This document shows, one piece after another, positions 22,554-30,107 of a stretch of 64,000 nt of DNA. The stretch lies in the NCBI GenBank assembly GCA_963795215.1, contig CAWCGW010000007.1, positions 639,745 through 703,744 of the forward strand. The letters run 5' to 3'. The translations under genes were made by a program, and so were the position numbers. Below the pieces are notes generated by a model, which was not told the origin of the DNA, searched no databases, and saw nothing but the letters and a program-made list of their open reading frames with translations. The stretch's first letter is position 1; every line of letters begins with the position of its first letter. The DNA is from an uncultured Actinomycetota bacterium. GTDB taxonomy: Bacteria > Actinomycetota > Actinomycetes > Propionibacteriales > Nocardioidaceae.

Positions 22554-22726
22554 GGTGTCGATCCCTTCGAGGACGTCGGGTGACCGTCATCGTCCGGGCT
22601 GTCTCGCTCCGAGGAGCAGAGAAGGGTGCCCGGACGGTCCAGGAGGTCCCCGGGTCGATCGGGAAGATTTCCTGGTCGCCCCCGCCCGGCGCGGCGGTAT
22701 CTTCAGGCGAGACCGAAGGGGGCCCG

Positions 22727-24646
22727 ATGCGGAGCCGATCGCTCGCTGCTGCACTCGGCCTCGTCGCCGCGCTCGCCGCCCTGGGCTCCCTCGCGTGCGT
22801 GCGGGCGGTGGGCTGGACCTTCGCCGACACGCTCGAGACCTTCGTCGTCAGCAACCTCGTGATCGGCGTCAGCTTCGGTCTGTGCGGGGTCCTGATCGCC
22901 TGGCACCGTCCTTCCTCGGCGCTCGGGTGGCTGTACGCCGTCGGCGGGGCGTTGCAGGCGATCTCCGCGCTGGCCGCGCCCCTGGCCCAACTGCTCGACG
23001 ACCGCGGCGCCGCCGAGGAGCTCGTCCGGGTCGCCGCGACCGGAGTCCAGTGGGGGTGGCCGGTCAACATCACGCTGATCCCGATCTCGCTGCTGCTGCT
23101 GCCCGAGGGCCGCTTCCCGACGGGACCGTGGCGGCCGGTGGCACTCGCTGCGGTGGGCACCGCTCCGCTGTTCGTCCTCGAGATCGGGCTGGCGCCGGAG
23201 CACCTGCCCGGTCTCCCCGGCGGGTACCTCGCGCTCGGCGCGGGCGCCTACGAATCCCTGACCTGGCTCTGGACGGTCAGCGAGGTGCGGTGGGCGCTCT
23301 CGGTGGTGATCGGGGTGGTGTACCTGGGCGTCCGCTACCGGTCCGGCAGCGAGGTGGTGCGCCGTCAGCTGCTGTGGTTGGTCGCCGCGGCCACCGCCGT
23401 CGCCCTGACGGTCATCCCCTGGGCCCTGGTCGCCGGCACCCCGCTGGTCGTGCTGTTCACGATCCCGCTGCTGCCCGCAGCCGTCGCGGCCGGGGTGCTG
23501 CGCCACCAGCTGCTCGACATCCGGTTGGTCGTGGCCCGCGGGCTCACGTACGCGTTGCTCTCCGGGCTGGTCCTCGCGGCCTACACCGTGCTGGTGGTCC
23601 TGCTGTCCGGTGTCGCCTCCGCCCTGGTGGTGGCACTGCTCGCCCTCCCGCTGCGCTCGCGGCTCCAGCGGGCGGTCGACCACCTGCTCTACGGCGAGCG
23701 CGGCAACCCGCTGGGGGTCGCCTCGCGCGTCGGCCGCTCGCTGGGGGCCGGCCTGCCCGAGACGCTGGAGGAGATCAGGACGGCGCTGCGTCTGCCGTAC
23801 GTCGCGGTGCTGGTGGACGGGGAGCCGCTCGCAGCCGGCGGCGCACCCGAGGGGCCCTCGGTCGACCACCCCCTCCCGGGAGGCACGCTCGTGGTCGGTC
23901 TGCGTCGGGGGGAGTCCCGGCTCGACCCCGCGGACGAGCACGTCCTCGCCCTGCTCGCCGGACCCCTGTCCACGGCCGTGCGGGCGACGGTGCTGCTCGA
24001 GGAGCTCCAGGGCTCGCGTGAACGGATCGTGGTCGCCCGCGAGGAGGAGCGCCGACGGCTGCGACGCGAGCTGCACGACGGGCTCGGGCCGCTGCTGACC
24101 GGGGTGGCGCTGTCCGCGGACACTGCCGCCAACCTCGCCGGGGGAGCGCCGGACGCACCCCTCCAGGAGCGGCTCGCGGCGGTGCGGTCCGACACGCGGT
24201 CCGCGATCCGGGAGGTGCGTCGGATCGTCGACGACCTCGGCTCACCCGCCCTGGACTCCTTCGGGCTCGTGGAGGCGCTGCGCCTGCGTGCGGACCAGGT
24301 CACCAGGCGTGCCGACGGGGCAGCCCTGCGGACCGTGGTGGAGGCGGACCCGCTGCCGAGCCTCCCCCCGGCCGTCGAGCAGGCGGCCTACCGGATCGCC
24401 ACCGAGGCGCTCAACAACGTCGTCCGACACTCCCGCGCTGCCGGGGTGGCGATCCGGCTCGCCGCTGACGAGGCCGGGCTGCACTGCGAGGTGCTCGACG
24501 ACGGTGGCCCCACGAGCGCGTGGCGCCCCGGGGTCGGGATCGCCGGGATGCGCGAACGGGTCTCGCAGCTGGGCGGCAGCTGCGAGGTGGGCCCGGGTGC
24601 CCGGGGTGGGGAGGTGAGGGTGTGTCTGCCGACCACGCTGGCGTGA
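22727..24646 (+). CDS. Membrane sensor histidine kinase (HisKA_3/NarL-type)
   Basis: Many TM helices, ERRRLRRELHDGLGP (H-box), EALNNVVRHS, DDGG, GIAGMRER. Confidence 0.9.
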   Translation: MRSRSLAAALGLVAALAALGSLACVRAVGWTFADTLETFVVSNLVIGVSFGLCGVLIAWHRPSSALGWLYAVGGALQAISALAAPLAQLLDDRGAAEELVRVAATGVQWGWPVNITLIPISLLLLPEGRFPTGPWRPVALAAVGTAPLFVLEIGLAPEHLPGLPGGYLALGAGAYESLTWLWTVSEVRWALSVVIGVVYLGVRYRSGSEVVRRQLLWLVAAATAVALTVIPWALVAGTPLVVLFTIPLLPAAVAAGVLRHQLLDIRLVVARGLTYALLSGLVLAAYTVLVVLLSGVASALVVALLALPLRSRLQRAVDHLLYGERGNPLGVASRVGRSLGAGLPETLEEIRTALRLPYVAVLVDGEPLAAGGAPEGPSVDHPLPGGTLVVGLRRGESRLDPADEHVLALLAGPLSTAVRATVLLEELQGSRERIVVAREEERRRLRRELHDGLGPLLTGVALSADTAANLAGGAPDAPLQERLAAVRSDTRSAIREVRRIVDDLGSPALDSFGLVEALRLRADQVTRRADGAALRTVVEADPLPSLPPAVEQAAYRIATEALNNVVRHSRAAGVAIRLAADEAGLHCEVLDDGGPTSAWRPGVGIAGMRERVSQLGGSCEVGPGARGGEVRVCLPTTLA

Positions 24647-25305
24647 TCCGGGTGCTCGTCGTCGACGACCACCCGGTGGTCCGGTCGGGTCTGGTCGGGC
24701 TGCTGTCCTCGCTCGAGGGGTTCGAGGTCGTCGCCGTCGCCGGCGACGGCCGGGAGGCCGTCCGCGAGGCGGTGCTGGCGCGACCGGACGTCGCGCTGAT
24801 GGACCTGCACATGCCCCGCGCGGACGGCTTCACCGCCATCCGCGAGCTGGCACGGGTGGCGCCGGCGGTGCGGGTCTGCGTGCTCACGATGTACGACGAC
24901 GACGACTCGCTCTTCGCCGCGATGCGGGCCGGGGCGCACGGCTACCTGCTCAAGGGCGCCGAGCAGGAGGAGATCGCGCGCGCGGTCCGGGCGATCGCGG
25001 CCGGCGAGGCGATCTTCGGCCCCGGCATCGCCGTACGGGTGCTGCACCAGCTGACCGCCCCTCCCGCGGAGCAGAGCCCCCTCGCCTTCCCGGACCTCAC
25101 GGCTCGAGAGCGCCAGGTCCTCGACCTGCTGGCCTCGGCGACGCCCACCGTCGCGATCGCCCGGCGGCTCGACGTCACCCCCAAGACCGTCAGCAACCAC
25201 GTGTCCACCATCCTCACCAAGCTCCACGTCGCCGATCGGACCCAGGCCGCGATGGTGGCGCGCGAGGCGGGGTTGGGCCAGGACGGCCCCGGCGGCTCGC
25301 GGTGA
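24643..25305 (+). CDS. NarL/LuxR-family response regulator
   Basis: VVDDHPVVR, LMDLHMP, LLKGA, LTARERQVL HTH; GTGA overlap with the kinase. Confidence 0.92.
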   Translation: MIRVLVVDDHPVVRSGLVGLLSSLEGFEVVAVAGDGREAVREAVLARPDVALMDLHMPRADGFTAIRELARVAPAVRVCVLTMYDDDDSLFAAMRAGAHGYLLKGAEQEEIARAVRAIAAGEAIFGPGIAVRVLHQLTAPPAEQSPLAFPDLTARERQVLDLLASATPTVAIARRLDVTPKTVSNHVSTILTKLHVADRTQAAMVAREAGLGQDGPGGSR

Positions 25306-25326: not shown

Positions 25327-25671
25327 TCAGTCCTGCGAGGCCAGCGACCTCAGCACCTCGGCCTGCGTGACGAGGAACGCCCGCTCGTCCAGCTTCCTGC
25401 GGCGCATCCAGGCGGTGACCTCGGTGTTGCACTTGCTGGCGTTGCAGGACCCGCAGGCGGGTACCACGTTGGCCAGGCAGTAGCGGCCCCCCACGGAGAT
25501 CGGCAGCAGGCAGTCCTTCTGCAGTGGGACGTCCTGCGCGTGGCAGTAGGCGCAGCCGCCCCAGGCCGCCTGCAGGGCGAGCCACTCGGCGGCGGTCAGG
25601 TCGTGCACGACCCTGGCCATCCGGCGCCTGCGGCGACGCGCACGGGTCGCTGCTCGGCTGCGGGAGACCAC
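25327..25671 (-). CDS. HNH-fold Zn-finger protein with Cys at the usual catalytic His position
   Basis: CAYC...QKDCLLPISVGG...NVVPACGSCNASK. Confidence 0.75.
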   Translation of the reverse strand: MVSRSRAATRARRRRRRMARVVHDLTAAEWLALQAAWGGCAYCHAQDVPLQKDCLLPISVGGRYCLANVVPACGSCNASKCNTEVTAWMRRRKLDERAFLVTQAEVLRSLASQD

Positions 25672-25915
25672 GCGCCGAGCGTAGGGCGCCGGCCGCTCGG
25701 GACCCGGGAGCCGCGCGGAGGAGCGGGTCAGGGGCCCCTCGTCCGGCACTCGCCTGGGGTCGTCACCACCCTCCTGACCAGCGGGGGTGGTCGGGTAGGA
25801 CTACTCGCGGGCGACGCTCGCAGCGACTTCGGATCGCGGCGTCACGAGGTGACGCGAAACCACTCCGGCGCCCGTCCCGGGCCACTACCTTGAGGCCCTC
25901 TGAAAGGTGGGCTTC

Positions 25916-27619
25916 ATGAGTGAGATCCGGATCAGCCGCGGTCGGCGGGGGCAGCAGTGGCGCGCGGGCCTGATGCTCGGACCCCTGGTGCTCGCGGCGG
26001 CTGCGTGCGGCACCGTCGACGGCACCGGCTCGGCGACGCCCGGAGCGACGCGCCCCACCGTGGAGCACACCACCGCCTTCCTGGACGAGGGCTGGGGCGA
26101 CGACTCGACCCGAGAGGACGAGCAGGCGTCGGAGGAGACCGGGACCTGGGAGCCCAAGGACGACCTGGGGTCGCTCTACACGTCCCAGAAGTGGTACGGC
26201 GCCCACAAGGCCTGGGCCAAGTCGGACGCCAGGAAGCAGAAGGTCACCGGACGCGGCGTCGACGTGGCGCTCATCGACACCGGCGTGGCCCCCGTGGCCG
26301 GGCTCACCGGAACCAACAAGGTGGTCAACGGACCCGACCTCTCCTTCGAGAGCCAGCACGACGGCACCCGCTACCTCGACGGCTACGGGCACGGCACCCA
26401 CATGGCCGGCGTCATCGCCGGCCGCGACCCCGACGTCGAGAGCGGCGACGAGGACGACGACGAGGTCTTCGTCGGCATGGCTCCGGACGCCCGGATCGTC
26501 AACCTCAAGGTGGGGACCGCAGACGGTGGTGCCGACGTCAGCCAGGTGATCGCGGCGATCGACTGGGCCGTGCAGCACCGGCGCCAGGACGGCCTGAACA
26601 TCCGCGTCATCAACCTGTCCTACGGCACCCACTCGACCCAGCCCTACACCGTCGACCCGCTTGCCTACGCCGTGGAGAACGCGTGGAGCAAGGGGATCGT
26701 GGTCGTGGCTGCCGCCGGCAACGACGGGTCCGGGCAGCAGCTCACCATGCCCGCGGCGGACCCGCACGTCCTGGCCGTCGGCGCCGTCGACCACCTCGGC
26801 ACCTCCTCGCGGAAGGACGACGTCACCGGCGACTTCACCAACTCCGGCACCTCGGAGCGCCGCCCCGACCTGCTGGCGCCCGGGAAGTCGGTGGTCTCGC
26901 TGCGGACGCCCGGCTCCTACTCCGACCGCGCCCATCCCGAGGGCCGGGTGACGGGCGACGACGCCGGTCGGTTCTTCCGTGGCAGCGGGACCTCGCAGGC
27001 GACCGCGATGGTCAGCGGCGCGGCGGCCCTGCTGCTGCAGCAGCGTCCCGAGCTCACCCCCGACCAGGTCAAGTACCTGCTCACCTCGACGGCCGAGCCG
27101 CTCAAGACCGGAGGCTTTGCGCAGGGTGCCGGCGTGCTCGACGTCAATGACATGCTCAAGGAGGACACGCCGTCCGCGGCCGTCGCCGCGCAGCCCTGGG
27201 CCCGTTCGACGGGCACCGGGAGCCTCGAGGCGTCGCGAGGGGACAGCCACGTCGTGGACCCCCTGGACGGGACCGCGTTGACCGGCGAGGTCGATGCGAT
27301 GGGCGCGCCGTGGGTCGCCCGGTCCTGGCGGGACCTGACGGCGACCGACCAAGCCTGGAGCGGAGGCGCCTGGAACGGCCGCACCTGGACCGGCGCCGGC
27401 TGGAGCGGTGGCTCGTGGACCGCCCGGTCCTGGCGGGAGGCCACGTGGAGCGGAGCCTCGTGGACCGGTGGTGACTGGTCCGCGCGCAGCTGGCGCGGCG
27501 ACCAGTGGACCGCGAACGGGTGGTCGAGCATCAACCTCTCCGGACGCAGCTGGTCGCAGGACGCGTGGAGCTCGCGGTCCTGGCGCGACTACTGGGGCAC
27601 GGCCAGCTCCGTCTGGTGA
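25916..27619 (+). CDS. Secreted/lipoprotein S8 (subtilisin-like) serine peptidase with C-terminal Trp pentapeptide repeats
   Basis: Lipobox LAAAAC; catalytic VALIDTG (D), GHGTHMAG (H), AAAGNDG (N), GSGTSQAT (S); W-x4 repeat tail. Confidence 0.92.
   Translation: MSEIRISRGRRGQQWRAGLMLGPLVLAAAACGTVDGTGSATPGATRPTVEHTTAFLDEGWGDDSTREDEQASEETGTWEPKDDLGSLYTSQKWYGAHKAWAKSDARKQKVTGRGVDVALIDTGVAPVAGLTGTNKVVNGPDLSFESQHDGTRYLDGYGHGTHMAGVIAGRDPDVESGDEDDDEVFVGMAPDARIVNLKVGTADGGADVSQVIAAIDWAVQHRRQDGLNIRVINLSYGTHSTQPYTVDPLAYAVENAWSKGIVVVAAAGNDGSGQQLTMPAADPHVLAVGAVDHLGTSSRKDDVTGDFTNSGTSERRPDLLAPGKSVVSLRTPGSYSDRAHPEGRVTGDDAGRFFRGSGTSQATAMVSGAAALLLQQRPELTPDQVKYLLTSTAEPLKTGGFAQGAGVLDVNDMLKEDTPSAAVAAQPWARSTGTGSLEASRGDSHVVDPLDGTALTGEVDAMGAPWVARSWRDLTATDQAWSGGAWNGRTWTGAGWSGGSWTARSWREATWSGASWTGGDWSARSWRGDQWTANGWSSINLSGRSWSQDAWSSRSWRDYWGTASSVW
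27356..27580 (+). repeat. 15 contiguous coding pentapeptide repeats, consensus W-[ST]-[GA]-x-x
   Basis: WSGGA WNGRT WTGAG WSGGS WTARS WREAT WSGAS WTGGD WSARS WRGDQ WTANG WSSIN LSGRS WSQDA WSSRS, then WRDYWGTASSVW-stop; TGG recurs every 15 nt. Confidence 0.95.
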
Positions 27620-27772
27620 CCTGCACCCGGCGGATGTGGGCGATCCGGCCACGCGAGCGGACCCGCGGTCCTATGCTCGACGGACGGACCCGGCCGTGCC
27701 CGTCCGAGTCTCTAGAAGGAATGGGAATCGTGGACGTCATGCACCCCTCCCGGTCCTGGACCCACCGGTGAG

Positions 27773-29803
27773 ATGACGATGGACATCGCAGCGGCAGACC
27801 CGACGGAGCAGTCAGGACGCCGTCCGCAGACGCTGATCTGGCTGCTGACGCTGGGCATGGCGGCCCTCGCCGCCCTCATCGCCGCCCCGGGGCTCTCCTC
27901 CGACCCCGAGGCCGCCATGCCGGGCGTGACCTGGTTCGTGCTGCTGCCGGTGTTCGCGCTCGCCGAGGTCGCGGTCATCCACCTGCCCACCGTCCGCAAC
28001 GCCCACGGTCACACGCTCCGCGAGATCCCCGCCGTGCTCGGGCTCACGCTGCTGTCCTCCCAGCAGTACGTGACGTGCTACGTCGTGGGTGCCATCCTGG
28101 CGCTGCTCGTGGCCGCCCGGATGCGTGGCGTCAAGCTCGCGTTCAACGCGGCGATGTTCGCCCTCGAGGCCGCCCTCGGTGCTCTCGTCTACCACGCGAT
28201 CCTGCAGGGGGGCGACCCGCTCTCGCCGGCGGCGTGGGTCGCCGTCCTGGTGGCCGTCCTGGTCACCGACCTCCTCTCGGCCGGTGCCGTGACCCTGGCG
28301 ATCAGCCTCACCGAGGGCGCCTTCGACGGGGAGGTGCTGGACGAGGCCCTCCGCTCGGGCTCGGTCGCGGCCTTCATCAACACCTGTGTCGCCCTGCTCG
28401 TCGCCACCCTGGTCCTCGTGCAGCCGTCCGCGCTCCCACTGCTCGCGGTCCTGGTCGTCCTGCTCGTGTTCGGCTACCGCGCCTACATGGCGCTGGCGCG
28501 AGGGCACGCGCGCACCCACCTGCTCTACCGGTTCGTGGACCGCACGTCCCAGGCCCGGTCGTTGGAGGAGGTCACCCAGGCCGTTCTGAAGGAGGCCACG
28601 GACCTGATGCACGTGGAGCGGGCCTACCTGGTGGAGGCCGTGGGCGACCGCCAGGCCCGGTGCCAGAGCCTGGAGTCGGGCGCGGTCCGCACCGAACTGC
28701 TCACGGTCGGGGAGACGACGCCCTGGTGGTGGGCCGCGTTCGGGTCGGGCATCGTGCGGCACCAGTCCGCGCCTCGCGCGAGCCACGCCGGGGACGCGAC
28801 GCCGGTCGAGGGACCGCCGTTGCTGCTCGACCCCCGTGACGGCCTCGCCGCGTCGCTGCGCGGTGCCGGAGCCGCGACGTACGCCCTCGTCGTGCTGGAC
28901 CGGTCCTTCGAGAAGGAGACCTTCGACGACGAGGACGAGCACGTCTTCGAGGTGCTGGCAGCCCATGCCGGCGTCGCGGTCGAGCGAGCCCGGACGGTGA
29001 GCGACCTGGAGTCCCTCGCCGGGGAGCTGCAGGCCGCTCGGGACGCGGCGCTCGCGGCGTCGGAGGCCAAGTCGATGTTCCTGACGAACTTCGGGCACGA
29101 GGTCAGGACGCCGCTGAGCACGGTGCTCGCTGCCGCGGAGCTCCTGGACGACTCGCCCCTGGACGCCGGTCAGACCGGGCTGCTCTCCAGGATCAGGCGG
29201 TCCGGGGGGCTGCTGCTGGCCCTGGTCAACGACGTCCTGGACTTCTCACGCAACGAGTTCGACAGCCCGGCCGCACGACCGGCGAGCTTCGACCTGCACG
29301 CCGTCGTGACGGGGGCCGTCTCGGCCCACCAGGCGACGGCGCACGACCGGGGGGTCAGCCTCGAGTGCCACTGGGACGACTGCGTCCCGCGCGTCGTCGA
29401 GGGGGACGTGGTCGGCGTGGCCAAGGTCCTGGACCACCTCCTCGACAACGCGGTGAAGTTCACCAAGGACGGCCGCATCGACGTCGCCGTCCGTGCCGCC
29501 CAGGACGACCGAGGGGTGTGCCTCTCCGTCTCCGACACCGGCATCGGCATCCACGAGCGCGACCGCGAGGCCATCTTCGAGGTCTTCACCCAGGTCGACG
29601 GATCCACCACGCGGAGCTATGAGGGCACCGGTCTGGGCCTGGCCATCTGCAAGCAGCGCACCGAGCTCATGGGCGGGACGATCTCCGTCGACGGCGAGCT
29701 CGGGGTCGGCAGCACCTTCACCGTCTGGCTGCCGCTCCGCCCGGCGAGCGAGTCATCGGAGACCGGGGCCTTCACCCCCGTCAGTGGGCGCCGGCGAGGT
29801 TGA
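27773..29803 (+). CDS. Orphan sensor histidine kinase: multi-TM input, GAF-like domain, HisKA and HATPase_c
   Basis: About 6-7 TM segments, GAF-like DEDEHVFEVLAAHAGVAVER, H-box FLTNFGHEVRTPL, LLDNAVKFT, DTGIG, GTGLGL. No receiver domain and no adjacent response regulator. Confidence 0.88.
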   Translation: MTMDIAAADPTEQSGRRPQTLIWLLTLGMAALAALIAAPGLSSDPEAAMPGVTWFVLLPVFALAEVAVIHLPTVRNAHGHTLREIPAVLGLTLLSSQQYVTCYVVGAILALLVAARMRGVKLAFNAAMFALEAALGALVYHAILQGGDPLSPAAWVAVLVAVLVTDLLSAGAVTLAISLTEGAFDGEVLDEALRSGSVAAFINTCVALLVATLVLVQPSALPLLAVLVVLLVFGYRAYMALARGHARTHLLYRFVDRTSQARSLEEVTQAVLKEATDLMHVERAYLVEAVGDRQARCQSLESGAVRTELLTVGETTPWWWAAFGSGIVRHQSAPRASHAGDATPVEGPPLLLDPRDGLAASLRGAGAATYALVVLDRSFEKETFDDEDEHVFEVLAAHAGVAVERARTVSDLESLAGELQAARDAALAASEAKSMFLTNFGHEVRTPLSTVLAAAELLDDSPLDAGQTGLLSRIRRSGGLLLALVNDVLDFSRNEFDSPAARPASFDLHAVVTGAVSAHQATAHDRGVSLECHWDDCVPRVVEGDVVGVAKVLDHLLDNAVKFTKDGRIDVAVRAAQDDRGVCLSVSDTGIGIHERDREAIFEVFTQVDGSTTRSYEGTGLGLAICKQRTELMGGTISVDGELGVGSTFTVWLPLRPASESSETGAFTPVSGRRRG

Positions 29804-30107
29804 GGCCGACGACGCCGAGGACGATCATGCCGAGCGAGGCGGCCTTGAACAGCGACATCTGCTCGCCGAGCCACAGGTAGCCGACGACGGCCACGATGGC
29901 GGTGCCGAGGCCGGACCACACGGCGTACGCCGTCGAGACCGACATGGTGCGGACCACGATCGCGAGCAGCCAGATCGAGGCGGCGTACCCCCCGAGCACG
30001 AACACCGACCACCACAGGTCGGTGAAACCGACGGTGCGGGGGAGCAGGGCGGTGGCGGCCACCTCGATGCCGATGGCGGCCAGGAGCAGCAGGACTGCGG
30101 CGAACAT
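29781..30107 (-). CDS. SMR (EmrE/QacE-like) small multidrug transporter
   Basis: GIEVAAT (membrane Glu), STAYAVWSGLG, four TM. Confidence 0.9.
   Translation of the reverse strand: MFAAVLLLLAAIGIEVAATALLPRTVGFTDLWWSVFVLGGYAASIWLLAIVVRTMSVSTAYAVWSGLGTAIVAVVGYLWLGEQMSLFKAASLGMIVLGVVGLNLAGAH

Follow-up and report, generated by a model that had tools for sequence, protein, structure and literature searches.

A tryptophan-centred pentapeptide tail on a predicted exported S8 protease of Actinomycetota and its pairing with membrane sensor genes

The window analysed here, a 64,000-nt stretch of DNA from an uncultured actinobacterium of the Nocardioidaceae, encodes an S8 (subtilase) protease that ends in a long array of pentapeptides, nearly all of them centred on tryptophan. 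What does such a tail do for a protease? No Pfam or NCBIfam model covers it, and we found no published description in the literature of either the Trp-repeat tail or the pair that this S8 protease forms with an adjacent sensor. An initial annotation, made from the letters of the DNA alone, had proposed either a beta-solenoid with stacked Trp or a multi-core precursor cut by the enzyme's own S8 domain into short Trp peptides. We re-examined the tail in the light of its homologues, its predicted structure and the genes that accompany it.

The protease and its pentapeptide array

The protease gene lies on the + strand (25907..27619) and, from the open reading frame list and Pfam, encodes 570 residues, the Trp-repeat tail among them. 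Starting at 25916 instead (+ strand) gives a 567-residue form, and an identical 567-residue protein with its start three codons later is present in the database. The beginning of the protein reads as a signal peptide (25907..26008, + strand): basic residues (RGRRGQQWR) make up its n-region, a hydrophobic core follows, and a lipobox-like AAAAC closes with Cys34. It is probably of the lipoprotein type. Such a lipobox-like motif was seen in no more than 5 of the 119 homologues; a lipoprotein signal is not general in the family of tail-bearing S8 proteases. Residues 1-60 have an AlphaFold (AF2) pLDDT below 50 in the full-length model.

The catalytic domain (26249..27124, + strand) matches Pfam PF00082 (Peptidase_S8) over residues 115-406 with 161 bits, against a gathering cut-off of 21.8 (E 5e-47). 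The catalytic Asp, His and Ser residues are found in order at D124 (DTG), H162 (HGTH) and S363 (GTSQA), together with the oxyanion Asn at N272 (GNDG), and all four are invariant in 96 aligned homologues. Foldseek, queried with the full-length model, retrieved subtilases only (top E 1e-23). Among curated families, the mycosins (TIGR03921), which are associated with type VII secretion, score best for the catalytic part with 167.8 bits, far below the equivalog cut-off of 278.75. Mycosins and this protease have in common that they are actinobacterial S8 enzymes of the exported kind that have, in place of a classical I9 propeptide, an N-terminal extension; no Pfam I9 match was found in this protease. 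Judging from these features, the enzyme is likely a catalytically intact, mycosin-like protease acting outside the cytoplasm. Mycosins, however, end in a C-terminal TM helix, whereas the Trp tail stands here in its place and no C-terminal TM anchor is present, the maximum Kyte-Doolittle mean over residues 431-570 being 0.5 (19-residue window). Mycosin genes also have ESX genes as neighbours, rather than a gene for a sensor kinase or GGDEF-EAL protein.

A conserved linker (residues 432-483; 27200..27355, + strand) joins the catalytic domain to the array. It has the form STGxGSLEASRGxxHVVDPxxGxxLxGEVDAxGxPW followed by a helix at 471-479, its residues G436, G438, R444, L458, E461 and D463 are invariant in the 96 aligned homologues, and its pLDDT in the full-length model is 87-96. 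Two tryptophans of the linker, Trp469 and Trp474, are in register upstream of the array; they are split off from it by Ala479, and AlphaFold places them in the linker and the helix, outside the repeat.

The array proper covers residues 484-560 (27356..27586, + strand) and consists of 16 units with the consensus [G/A]-[R/x]-[S/T/A]-W-[S/T/R]. Trp recurs every five residues from 484 and 489 through 539, forming 12 consecutive units, gives way to Leu at 544 and returns at 549, 554 and 559. Elsewhere in the protein Trp accounts for 1.7% of the residues; at that frequency, 15 or more in-register Trp among 16 positions would arise by chance with a probability of about 5e-26. The 15 in-register Trp with a single Leu substitution described in the initial annotation were confirmed, as was the start of the array at 27356, where the codon of Trp484 begins. 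The C-terminal Trp that had been taken as the end of the array does not belong to it: Trp570, like Trp563, is out of register, and a final Trp is found in just 38 of 119 homologues and is thus no trait of the family. What follows the array is a non-periodic segment, DYWGTASSVW plus the stop codon (27587..27619, + strand), which is poorly conserved, the closest homologues having 32% identity here, and for which disorder is predicted, with AF2 pLDDT below 50 for residues 553-570.

Trp makes up 94% of the central column, the remainder being mostly F, L, V, I or Y. Position i-2 is most often Arg (R 33%, S 12%, D 12%, A 10%) and position i-1 Ser (44%), and the RS or RT dipeptides reported just before Trp are indeed found in ARSW (three times), GRTW, GRSW and SRSW. 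Self-similarity of the non-Trp positions is greater at lags of 10 and 20 residues than at 5, 15 and 25. The units also have divergent codons, as had been stated: ARSWR units differ in codon usage, including a TCC/AGC serine switch, and Tandem Repeats Finder gives weak arrays of 15/30 nt with 60-76% matches at 27353-27468.

Conservation and structure of the tail

The tail is carried by 313 actinobacterial homologues, every one of them an S8 protease, and among prokaryotes the Trp repeat is almost confined to S8 proteins. Many further phmmer matches to the tail only (GMEWN, GLVWS and GLDWT arrays) were disregarded because they resemble simple DNA repeats in translation. All 96 aligned homologues preserve the five-residue register, their indels are exclusively multiples of five, and homologues have anywhere from 8 to 26 units, again in five-residue steps. 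Where Trp is replaced in its columns in the 96 aligned homologues, the substitute is mostly F, L, I, V, M or Y; the column of Leu544 itself contains W in 58 of these homologues, L in 12, F in 8, I in 7, V in 4 and T in 4. The most conserved part of the tail is its very beginning, W484-G496 (WSGGAWNGRTWTG; 27356..27394, + strand), with the motif WxGGxWNGxxWxG. W484, G487 and W494 are invariant in the same alignment, in which W489, N490 and G496 reach 90% conservation or more, and the motif is common even to distant relatives with other units, that is, with GSSWS-, GNTWS- and GASWD-type tails.

Among the 25 closest homologues, position-specific identity reaches 73% in the repeat (67% when Trp is left out), compared with 80% in the catalytic domain and 28% in the N-terminus. 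The dN/dS values are 0.10, 0.21 and 0.37 for the repeat versus 0.11, 0.24 and 0.23 for the catalytic domain, at dS of 0.5-0.9. These figures uphold the earlier suggestion that the repeat is maintained at the protein level; the tail is an old, selected protein module under purifying selection.

Structure prediction gave different pictures of the tail within the protein and on its own. In the full-length AF2 model (pTM 0.86), the tail is ordered with short strands (pLDDT 77-96), with values dropping from 93 to 68 along the array. When the tail was modelled alone with a 32-sequence alignment, pLDDT was 34 and no beta-helix was built. Order in the full-length model may reflect context or alignment depth, and AF2 is known to over-predict repeat folds (PMC11795689). 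The initial annotation had named loss of the five-residue register in homologues as a result that would count against the solenoid; with the register conserved and the indels in steps of five, the structural proposal withstands this check. The solenoid itself is not demonstrated, and the predicted order of the tail is confined to the full-length model.

The low pLDDT of the isolated tail would also fit a sticky, largely disordered Trp repeat that gathers the protease into oligomers or clusters at the surface by self-association or heterotypic aromatic contacts. A similar pattern is known from mammals: in the tryptophan repeat of NANOG, about 10 pentapeptides rich in S/T/N/Q place a Trp at each fifth position, and protein-protein association, including dimerisation and Sox2 binding, depends in its strength on how many Trp there are (PMC5446312). 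NANOG is, however, a eukaryotic nuclear transcription factor without homology to the tail, and its repeat lies in a largely disordered, prion-like region, whereas the protease is predicted to be exported and the non-Trp positions of its repeat are conserved. This position-specific conservation with its low dN/dS, the conserved Gly and Asn of the first units and the high pLDDT in the full-length context together indicate a defined structure, and a sticky repeat appears improbable to us.

Period five is best known from the pentapeptide repeat proteins (PF00805/PF13576/PF13599; MfpA, QnrB1, AhQnr and the repeat region of DotG), which form a right-handed quadrilateral beta-helix. They share with the 16 units of the tail both the period and a hydrophobic central residue, and the tail also resembles their consensus [STAV][DN][LF][STR][G] in having S/T/R after the centre and G/A next. 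The greater self-similarity of the non-Trp positions at lags of 10 and 20 is a further point of likeness. Yet the centre is Trp in the tail and Leu/Phe in these proteins; position i-2, which points inward and is small in the known structures, is Arg in a third of the tail units; and position i-1 is mostly Ser and not D/N, in departure from the A(D/N)LXX consensus. Moreover, known pentapeptide repeat proteins are cytoplasmic DNA mimics or lumenal proteins and not protease tails. The initial annotation had set the tail apart from the A-[DN]-[LF]-x-x family. In line with this, no Pfam Pentapeptide model matched the tail at E<=10, a six-frame scan of the genome with PF00805 hit 8 other places and missed the Trp tail, and hhalign of the tail against an MfpA-like profile built from the source genome and its relatives returned a probability of 0.2%. 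The separation is nevertheless less sharp than had been claimed: the tail's sole PDB matches, weak as they are (E 0.07-1.6), are Qnr/DotG pentapeptide-repeat proteins aligned in register with Trp on the central L/F column, and the (GTRWS)n tail of one relative passes PF00805 with 20.8 bits against a cut-off of 20.2.

In many subtilases a C-terminal extension is processed. The tail could likewise be a propeptide or autoinhibitory extension that aids folding or secretion, or blocks the active site, and is removed on maturation; its confident placement relative to the catalytic domain, at the full-length pTM given above, would agree with such a role. On the other hand, a length of anything between 8 and 26 units is a poor match to a fixed catalytic domain, the disordered final 18 residues do not lie in the active-site cleft, and the pairing of S8 and sensor genes described below is left unexplained. 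Of all the readings weighed here, we hold this one to be the least probable.

Pairing with a membrane sensor

The most informative fact on the tail lies next to the protease gene and was missed by the initial annotation: S8 and sensor genes form a conserved pair, and this pairing is the key context of the tail. The neighbours of the protease in the window are a two-component system, an HNH-like ORF, a sensor kinase and an SMR-like ORF. Beyond an intergenic gap of 153 nt (27620..27772, + strand), the sensor gene (27773..29803, + strand) encodes a membrane histidine kinase of 676 residues, as recognized by Pfam and hydropathy. It has about 7-8 hydrophobic segments with short outer loops in residues 1-245, followed by GAF (261-404), HisKA (432-495) and HATPase_c (544-656) domains assigned by Pfam. 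The N-terminal 260-330 residues are 43-79% identical to the N-termini encoded after tail-bearing S8 genes elsewhere, and the N-terminal 260 residues, which constitute the input domain of these partners, have no match among Pfam or NCBIfam models.

Two further candidate genes at the locus were rejected. A small ORF in the gap (27721-27771, MGIVDVMHPSRSWTHR followed by a stop codon) contains one tail-like SRSWT and ends 1 nt before the ATG of the sensor. It is not a conserved gene: it is absent in the closest relative of the same architecture (L064), and eight other pairs show no consistent frame, start or position for it. A conserved third gene upstream of the protease was also considered; the upstream ORFs of two related loci, of no recognized kind, are homologous neither to one another nor to any part of the window.

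A class-wide scan of the pairing, in which the best 20 candidates per genome were scored, found the N-terminal domain of the sensor directly downstream of the tail and on the same strand in 66 of 98 tail matches (45 genomes), with a median distance of 171 nt between the matched tail and sensor parts. The spacing of the two genes in 14 extracted pairs of relatives ranges from -38 (overlap) to +149 nt. In the cases examined, every S8 gene directly upstream of a sensor has the tail, and ten sensors without an upstream tail match have no S8 gene upstream at all. Co-inheritance was analysed at genus level with all candidates scored in 41 genomes. Three of them contain a tail-bearing S8 gene, and the sensor is found in the same three plus one more, in which the contig begins 17 nt before the sensor match; the remaining 37 genomes have neither. 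Tail-bearing S8 and sensor genes are thus gained or lost together within the genus.

The partners share a TM and GAF input and vary in their output. All 15 partners examined outside the window are TM-GAF-GGDEF-EAL proteins with GGDEF and EAL motifs intact in the alignment, and the histidine kinase output occurs in this window. Loops of the input domain are short and poorly conserved, and conserved polar residues lie within the TM segments. Compared by description, this arrangement is reminiscent of MASE-type domains (e.g., MASE9, bioRxiv 10.1101/2021.11.05.467447), which likewise combine a membrane domain of about eight segments, short variable loops, conserved in-membrane polar residues and different outputs.

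The pairing has its exceptions. No sensor neighbour was found for 32 of the 98 tail-bearing S8 genes, and about 43% of the sensor matches have no S8 neighbour, both figures coming from the best 20 candidates per genome, where absences are unreliable. The sensor neighbour is likewise absent at the paralogue in the source genome and at the closest relative with DNA examined. With a third of the tail-bearing S8 proteases lacking a sensor, the tail must have some sensor-independent role.

One such role would be that of a general envelope anchor, by which the tail binds wall polymers or the membrane interface, replaces the TM helix of mycosins and makes no direct contact with the sensor, the pairing then reflecting a shared regulon or another non-physical link. 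The frequent tail-bearing S8 genes without a sensor, including the paralogue, favour this explanation, and so does the fact that the nearest curated family is that of the membrane-anchored mycosins, with the tail occupying the place of their anchor. Aromatic-rich repeats often bind carbohydrates, and Trp prefers membrane interfaces. A generic binder would, however, be expected on many kinds of exoenzyme, which is at odds with a repeat nearly confined to S8 proteins in prokaryotes. Since a general anchor leaves unexplained both the tail on every sensor-upstream S8 protease examined and the co-inheritance within the genus, we consider it unlikely.

The sensor also bears on the multi-core precursor of the initial annotation, in which the S8 domain or another protease would cut the tail into membrane-partitioning Trp peptides serving as ligands of the adjacent sensor. 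The signalling Phr pentapeptides of Bacillus are released by secreted subtilisin-type proteases, the short outer loops and polar TM residues of the sensor make a membrane-partitioning ligand plausible, and in some lineages the units of a single protein are nearly identical yet differ from lineage to lineage (GSSWS, GNTWS, GASWD). In the protein studied here, by contrast, the 16 units all differ, orthologues preserve every one of them in its particular place, and cleavage would yield a mixture of peptides rather than a single signal. Nor is there any conserved flanking cleavage motif or recurring flank around the units, or a peptide-modifying gene or dedicated exporter nearby or at related loci. 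Furthermore, the repeat is internal in one relative with the order S8 - repeat - NHL, and full-length AF2 modelling gives an ordered tail. The precursor proposal fares badly against this record, and we regard it as very improbable.

A candidate protease-sensor signalling unit

In the reading that we favour, and to which we give about an even chance of being correct, the tail stays on the protease permanently as a module for docking or retention within a signalling unit made of protease and sensor. The Trp side chains found every five residues would form the packed core or the contact surface of an ordered repeat. This structure would begin at the WxGGxWNGxxWxG nucleus beside the catalytic domain and grow or shrink by five residues at a time. 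The tail would hold the protease at the cell envelope and, in most members of the family, would sit at or beside the presumably co-transcribed sensor with its approximately 8 TM segments. The gene pair would then behave as one unit joining extracellular proteolysis to intracellular signalling. The very short outer loops of the sensor leave little obvious surface on which a folded domain could dock.

Concerning the direction of the signal, outside-in signalling seems the likelier, given that the partners combine a conserved input with varied outputs whose GGDEF/EAL or kinase motifs are intact. A more specific version of the docking module can be envisaged, although we deem it rather doubtful. 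Here the tail would be a physical coupler seating the protease on the membrane input of the sensor, the intact tail in the membrane interface, or fragments of it, would be the sensor ligand, and proteolysis would set c-di-GMP or kinase activity.

A protease associated with c-di-GMP signalling has a precedent. The periplasmic protease LapG of Pseudomonas fluorescens is under the control of LapD, a membrane c-di-GMP receptor. Both systems place the gene for an extracytoplasmic protease directly upstream of a membrane GGDEF-EAL gene, and they have in common the idea that c-di-GMP signalling and proteolysis at the surface are coupled through the membrane. The components are nevertheless distinct. 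LapG is a cysteine protease, while the enzyme described here is of the S8 type; LapD has a sizeable periplasmic domain, a HAMP domain and degenerate, c-di-GMP-binding GGDEF/EAL domains, unlike the present sensor family with its very short outer loops, GAF domain and intact GGDEF/EAL motifs or kinase. Seen against LapG and LapD, outside-in signalling is therefore no less likely than inside-out.

If the tail is indeed such a docking module, exported proteases of a large actinobacterial family, which is present in about half the sampled genera of the class and has at least 8 copies in one genome (among the best 20 candidates per genome), have a conserved module that is absent from domain libraries. 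The Trp-centred repeat structure would represent either a new design of repeat core or else the pentapeptide helix in an extreme version. The linkage to the sensor would provide a testable lead to the signal of orphan polytopic input domains. It would also suggest that Gram-positive bacteria have a counterpart of protease-coupled c-di-GMP signalling.

A conserved tryptophan pentapeptide tail on an S8 protease

The 570-codon ORF at 25907-27619 (+ strand) encodes an S8 protease with a basic and hydrophobic N-terminus closing in a lipobox-like AAAAC (Cys34). The fold of the protease is ordinary. Pfam places a Peptidase_S8 domain at residues 115-406 (161 bits), and the active site is intact, with Asp124, His162, Asn272 and Ser363 invariant across 96 homologues. 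The nearest curated family is that of the mycosins of type VII secretion, but the score lies far under the cut-off (167.8 vs 278.75 bits) and the enzyme is therefore mycosin-like, not a mycosin. Hydropathy analysis found no hydrophobic segment in the C-terminal 140 residues.

The 3' end of the gene, beyond a linker (residues 432-483), encodes a tail (residues 484-560) with 16 in-register positions. Fifteen of them are Trp (every fifth residue from 484 and 489 through 539, then 549, 554 and 559) and only residue 544 is Leu, as the initial annotation described, and the array begins exactly at nucleotide 27356. Given the Trp content of the remaining protein, the chance probability of this pattern is about 5e-26. 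Trp469 and Trp474 are also in register but placed in the linker. The C-terminal Trp was previously taken as the end of the array; Trp570, like Trp563, is out of register, and it is incidental, since a terminal Trp occurs in no more than 38 of 119 homologues. Recent slippage was correctly dismissed, because the DNA holds just weak 15/30-nt arrays (60-76% matches) and identical peptide units are encoded by different codons.

A search restricted to the tail retrieved 313 proteins, all of them S8 proteases (313/313), from Nocardioides, Marmoricola, Vallicoccus, Motilibacter and many metagenomes. A class-wide profile scan, in which the best 20 candidates per genome were scored, found the tail in at least 80 of 201 genomes and at least 61 of 123 genera, a single genome carrying as many as 8 copies. 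Unit types vary among homologues (ARSWR/ARSWS ten-residue units, GSSWS, GRSWS, GATWT and others) and Trp recurs every fifth residue throughout, with 8-26 in-register Trp per homologue (median 17). Alignments contain indels in multiples of five only, the sole residues replacing Trp in its columns are F, L, I, V, M and Y, and 58 of 96 sequences have Trp in the Leu544 column. The best conserved part of the tail, WxGGxWNGxxWxG in the first units, is common even to relatives with quite different units. Sequence identity across the 25 closest homologues is 73% in the repeat (67% when Trp is excluded), compared with 80% in the catalytic domain, 63% in the linker and 28% at the N-terminus. For three relatives compared at the DNA level (dS 0.5-0.9), dN/dS was 0.10, 0.21 and 0.37 in the repeat and 0.11, 0.24 and 0.23 in the catalytic domain. 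The preserved register, the five-residue indels and the low dN/dS of the repeat bear out the earlier proposal that it is maintained at the protein level; the tail is a family feature under selection.

The initial annotation had read the array either as a beta-solenoid or as a multi-core precursor cut by the enzyme's own S8 domain. A precursor would agree with the very short outer loops of the sensor encoded downstream, which would suit a membrane-partitioning ligand, but all 16 units of the tail differ, each being conserved at its own position, and neither cleavage motifs nor modifying genes are present. Moreover, the repeat is internal in one relative, P0223, a metagenomic protein of 1413 aa in which Peptidase_S8 (81-377) precedes the Trp pentapeptide repeat (~470-546) and NHL beta-propeller domains. 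We consequently regard the precursor as very improbable, and give slightly less credence still to a removable propeptide. The arrangement of P0223 indicates that the repeat can serve as a connecting module.

Predicted order of the tail and its likeness to known repeats

AlphaFold2 modelled the full-length protease with a pTM of 0.86 (96-sequence alignment). In this model the tail forms short two-residue strands, its pLDDT declining along residues 481-550 from 93 to 68, and the final 18 residues are disordered; modelled by itself (32 sequences), the tail reached a pLDDT of only 34. Structure prediction thus upholds an ordered tail within the full-length protein but not in isolation, and over-prediction of solenoids from repeats is a known weakness of AlphaFold2 (PMC11795689). 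We conclude that the tail very probably forms an ordered repeat whose nucleation lies beside the catalytic domain.

Neither Pfam nor NCBIfam models matched the tail. In the PDB, sequence searches and profile searches alike gave very weak matches only (E 0.07-1.6), all to pentapeptide-repeat proteins (QnrB1, AhQnr, DotG), with Trp aligned to the central hydrophobic column. The (GTRWS)n tail of an S8 protease from another genome of the class (locus L014) reaches 20.8 bits on PF00805 (cut-off 20.2) and falls just under the cut-off of PF13576 (26.4 vs 27); the tail studied here scores nothing. Self-similarity of the non-Trp positions is higher at lags of 10 and 20 than at 5, 15 and 25. By sequence, the tail thus resembles a pentapeptide repeat, a known kind, centred on Trp. 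However, position i-2 is small and buried in known pentapeptide repeat helices, whereas it is Arg in one third of the units. This difference, the failure of a whole-genome PF00805 scan to detect the tail and an hhalign probability of 0.2% against an MfpA-like profile argue against membership of the pentapeptide-repeat family.

The closest described sequence pattern is the NANOG tryptophan repeat, an analogy only and not a homology, which also has Trp every fifth residue and in which Trp number sets dimerisation and Sox2 binding (PMC5446312). That the tail is a comparably sticky repeat seems unlikely to us. Another, independent example of a long array with Trp every fifth residue is P0121 (1154 aa): the extracellular region of this eukaryotic adhesion-type GPCR (GPS motif and 7tm_2) contains 93 in-register (NGQVW) pentapeptides, just ahead of the autoproteolysis site.

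The adjoining sensor gene and its pairing with the protease

A sensor kinase gene (676 aa, 27773-29803) starts 153 nt downstream of the protease gene. Residues 1-245 of its product contain about 7-8 hydrophobic segments, linked on the outside by short loops, and are followed by GAF, HisKA and HATPase_c domains. The gene after the tail-bearing S8 encodes the same membrane and GAF N-terminus with a GGDEF-EAL output in Nocardioides panacis (53% identity) and Motilibacter aurantiacus (43% identity). Such a conserved input with varying output typically marks a sensor that receives a signal linked to the neighbouring gene.

The sensor domain lies directly downstream on the same strand in 66 of 98 tail matches (45 genomes), the matched parts lying a median of 171 nt apart; chance expectation for this adjacency is well under 1%, and several unpaired tail matches sit at contig ends. 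Gene spacing in 14 extracted pairs ranges from an overlap of 38 nt to a gap of 149 nt, and each partner is a TM-GAF-GGDEF-EAL protein whose GGDEF and EAL motifs are intact. None of 10 sensors lacking an upstream tail match has any S8 gene upstream. When all candidates were scored in 41 genomes of the window's genus, only three carried the tail-bearing S8, and the same three carried the sensor (adjacent in two, ~1.9 kb off in the third), while 37 had neither. The two genes thus behave as a single accessory unit. The sensor was also found in one fragmented genus genome, G213, where contigs 42 and 43 both begin 17 nt ahead of the sensor-domain match. This suggests that assembly breaks tend to fall within or close to the gene upstream, in which case the pair would be undercounted in draft genomes.

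Pairing is not obligatory. A second tail-bearing S8 (565 aa; contig 7, 742104-742478, - strand; loci L002/L005), ~75 kb away in the same genome, has no adjoining sensor gene; it bears a Sec-type signal and a tail whose K/R-rich first half is followed by three WxARSWR units. Pairing is lost in the closest relative compared at the DNA level, and a PAS kinase gene separates the two genes in another.

The protease-sensor gap holds a small ORF, MGIVDVMHPSRSWTHR (27721-27771, +), with one tail-like SRSWT motif, a preceding GAAGGA and a stop 1 nt ahead of the sensor ATG. It is probably a chance ORF since it is conserved neither in the closest relative of the same architecture nor in eight other pairs. 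Just upstream of the protease region, genes for a membrane HisKA_3 histidine kinase and a LuxR-type response regulator (22580-25305, +) overlap by ~125 nt as listed, so one start is probably wrong. Between the regulator and protease genes, on the opposite strand, sits a small HNH-endonuclease-like ORF (25327-25749, -; weak HNH_5/HNH matches). A small hydrophobic, SMR-type-transporter-like ORF (108 aa, 29781-30107, -) runs towards the gene for the sensor kinase, and the two overlap by ~20 nt at the 3' end of the latter.

Possible coupling of extracellular proteolysis to signalling

No description of the tail or of the protease-sensor pair was found in the domain libraries or literature searched; the pair can be likened to the protease-coupled second-messenger signalling of LapG/LapD. 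An envelope anchor making no contact with the sensor is a possible but rather doubtful role for the tail. We favour, with moderate confidence, a lasting, ordered module that would dock or retain the presumably exported protease and, in most family members, would act jointly with the polytopic, putatively co-transcribed sensor, perhaps through physical contact. Whichever way the signal may run, the gene pair would tie proteolysis outside the cell to c-di-GMP signalling or, in the window, to kinase signalling.
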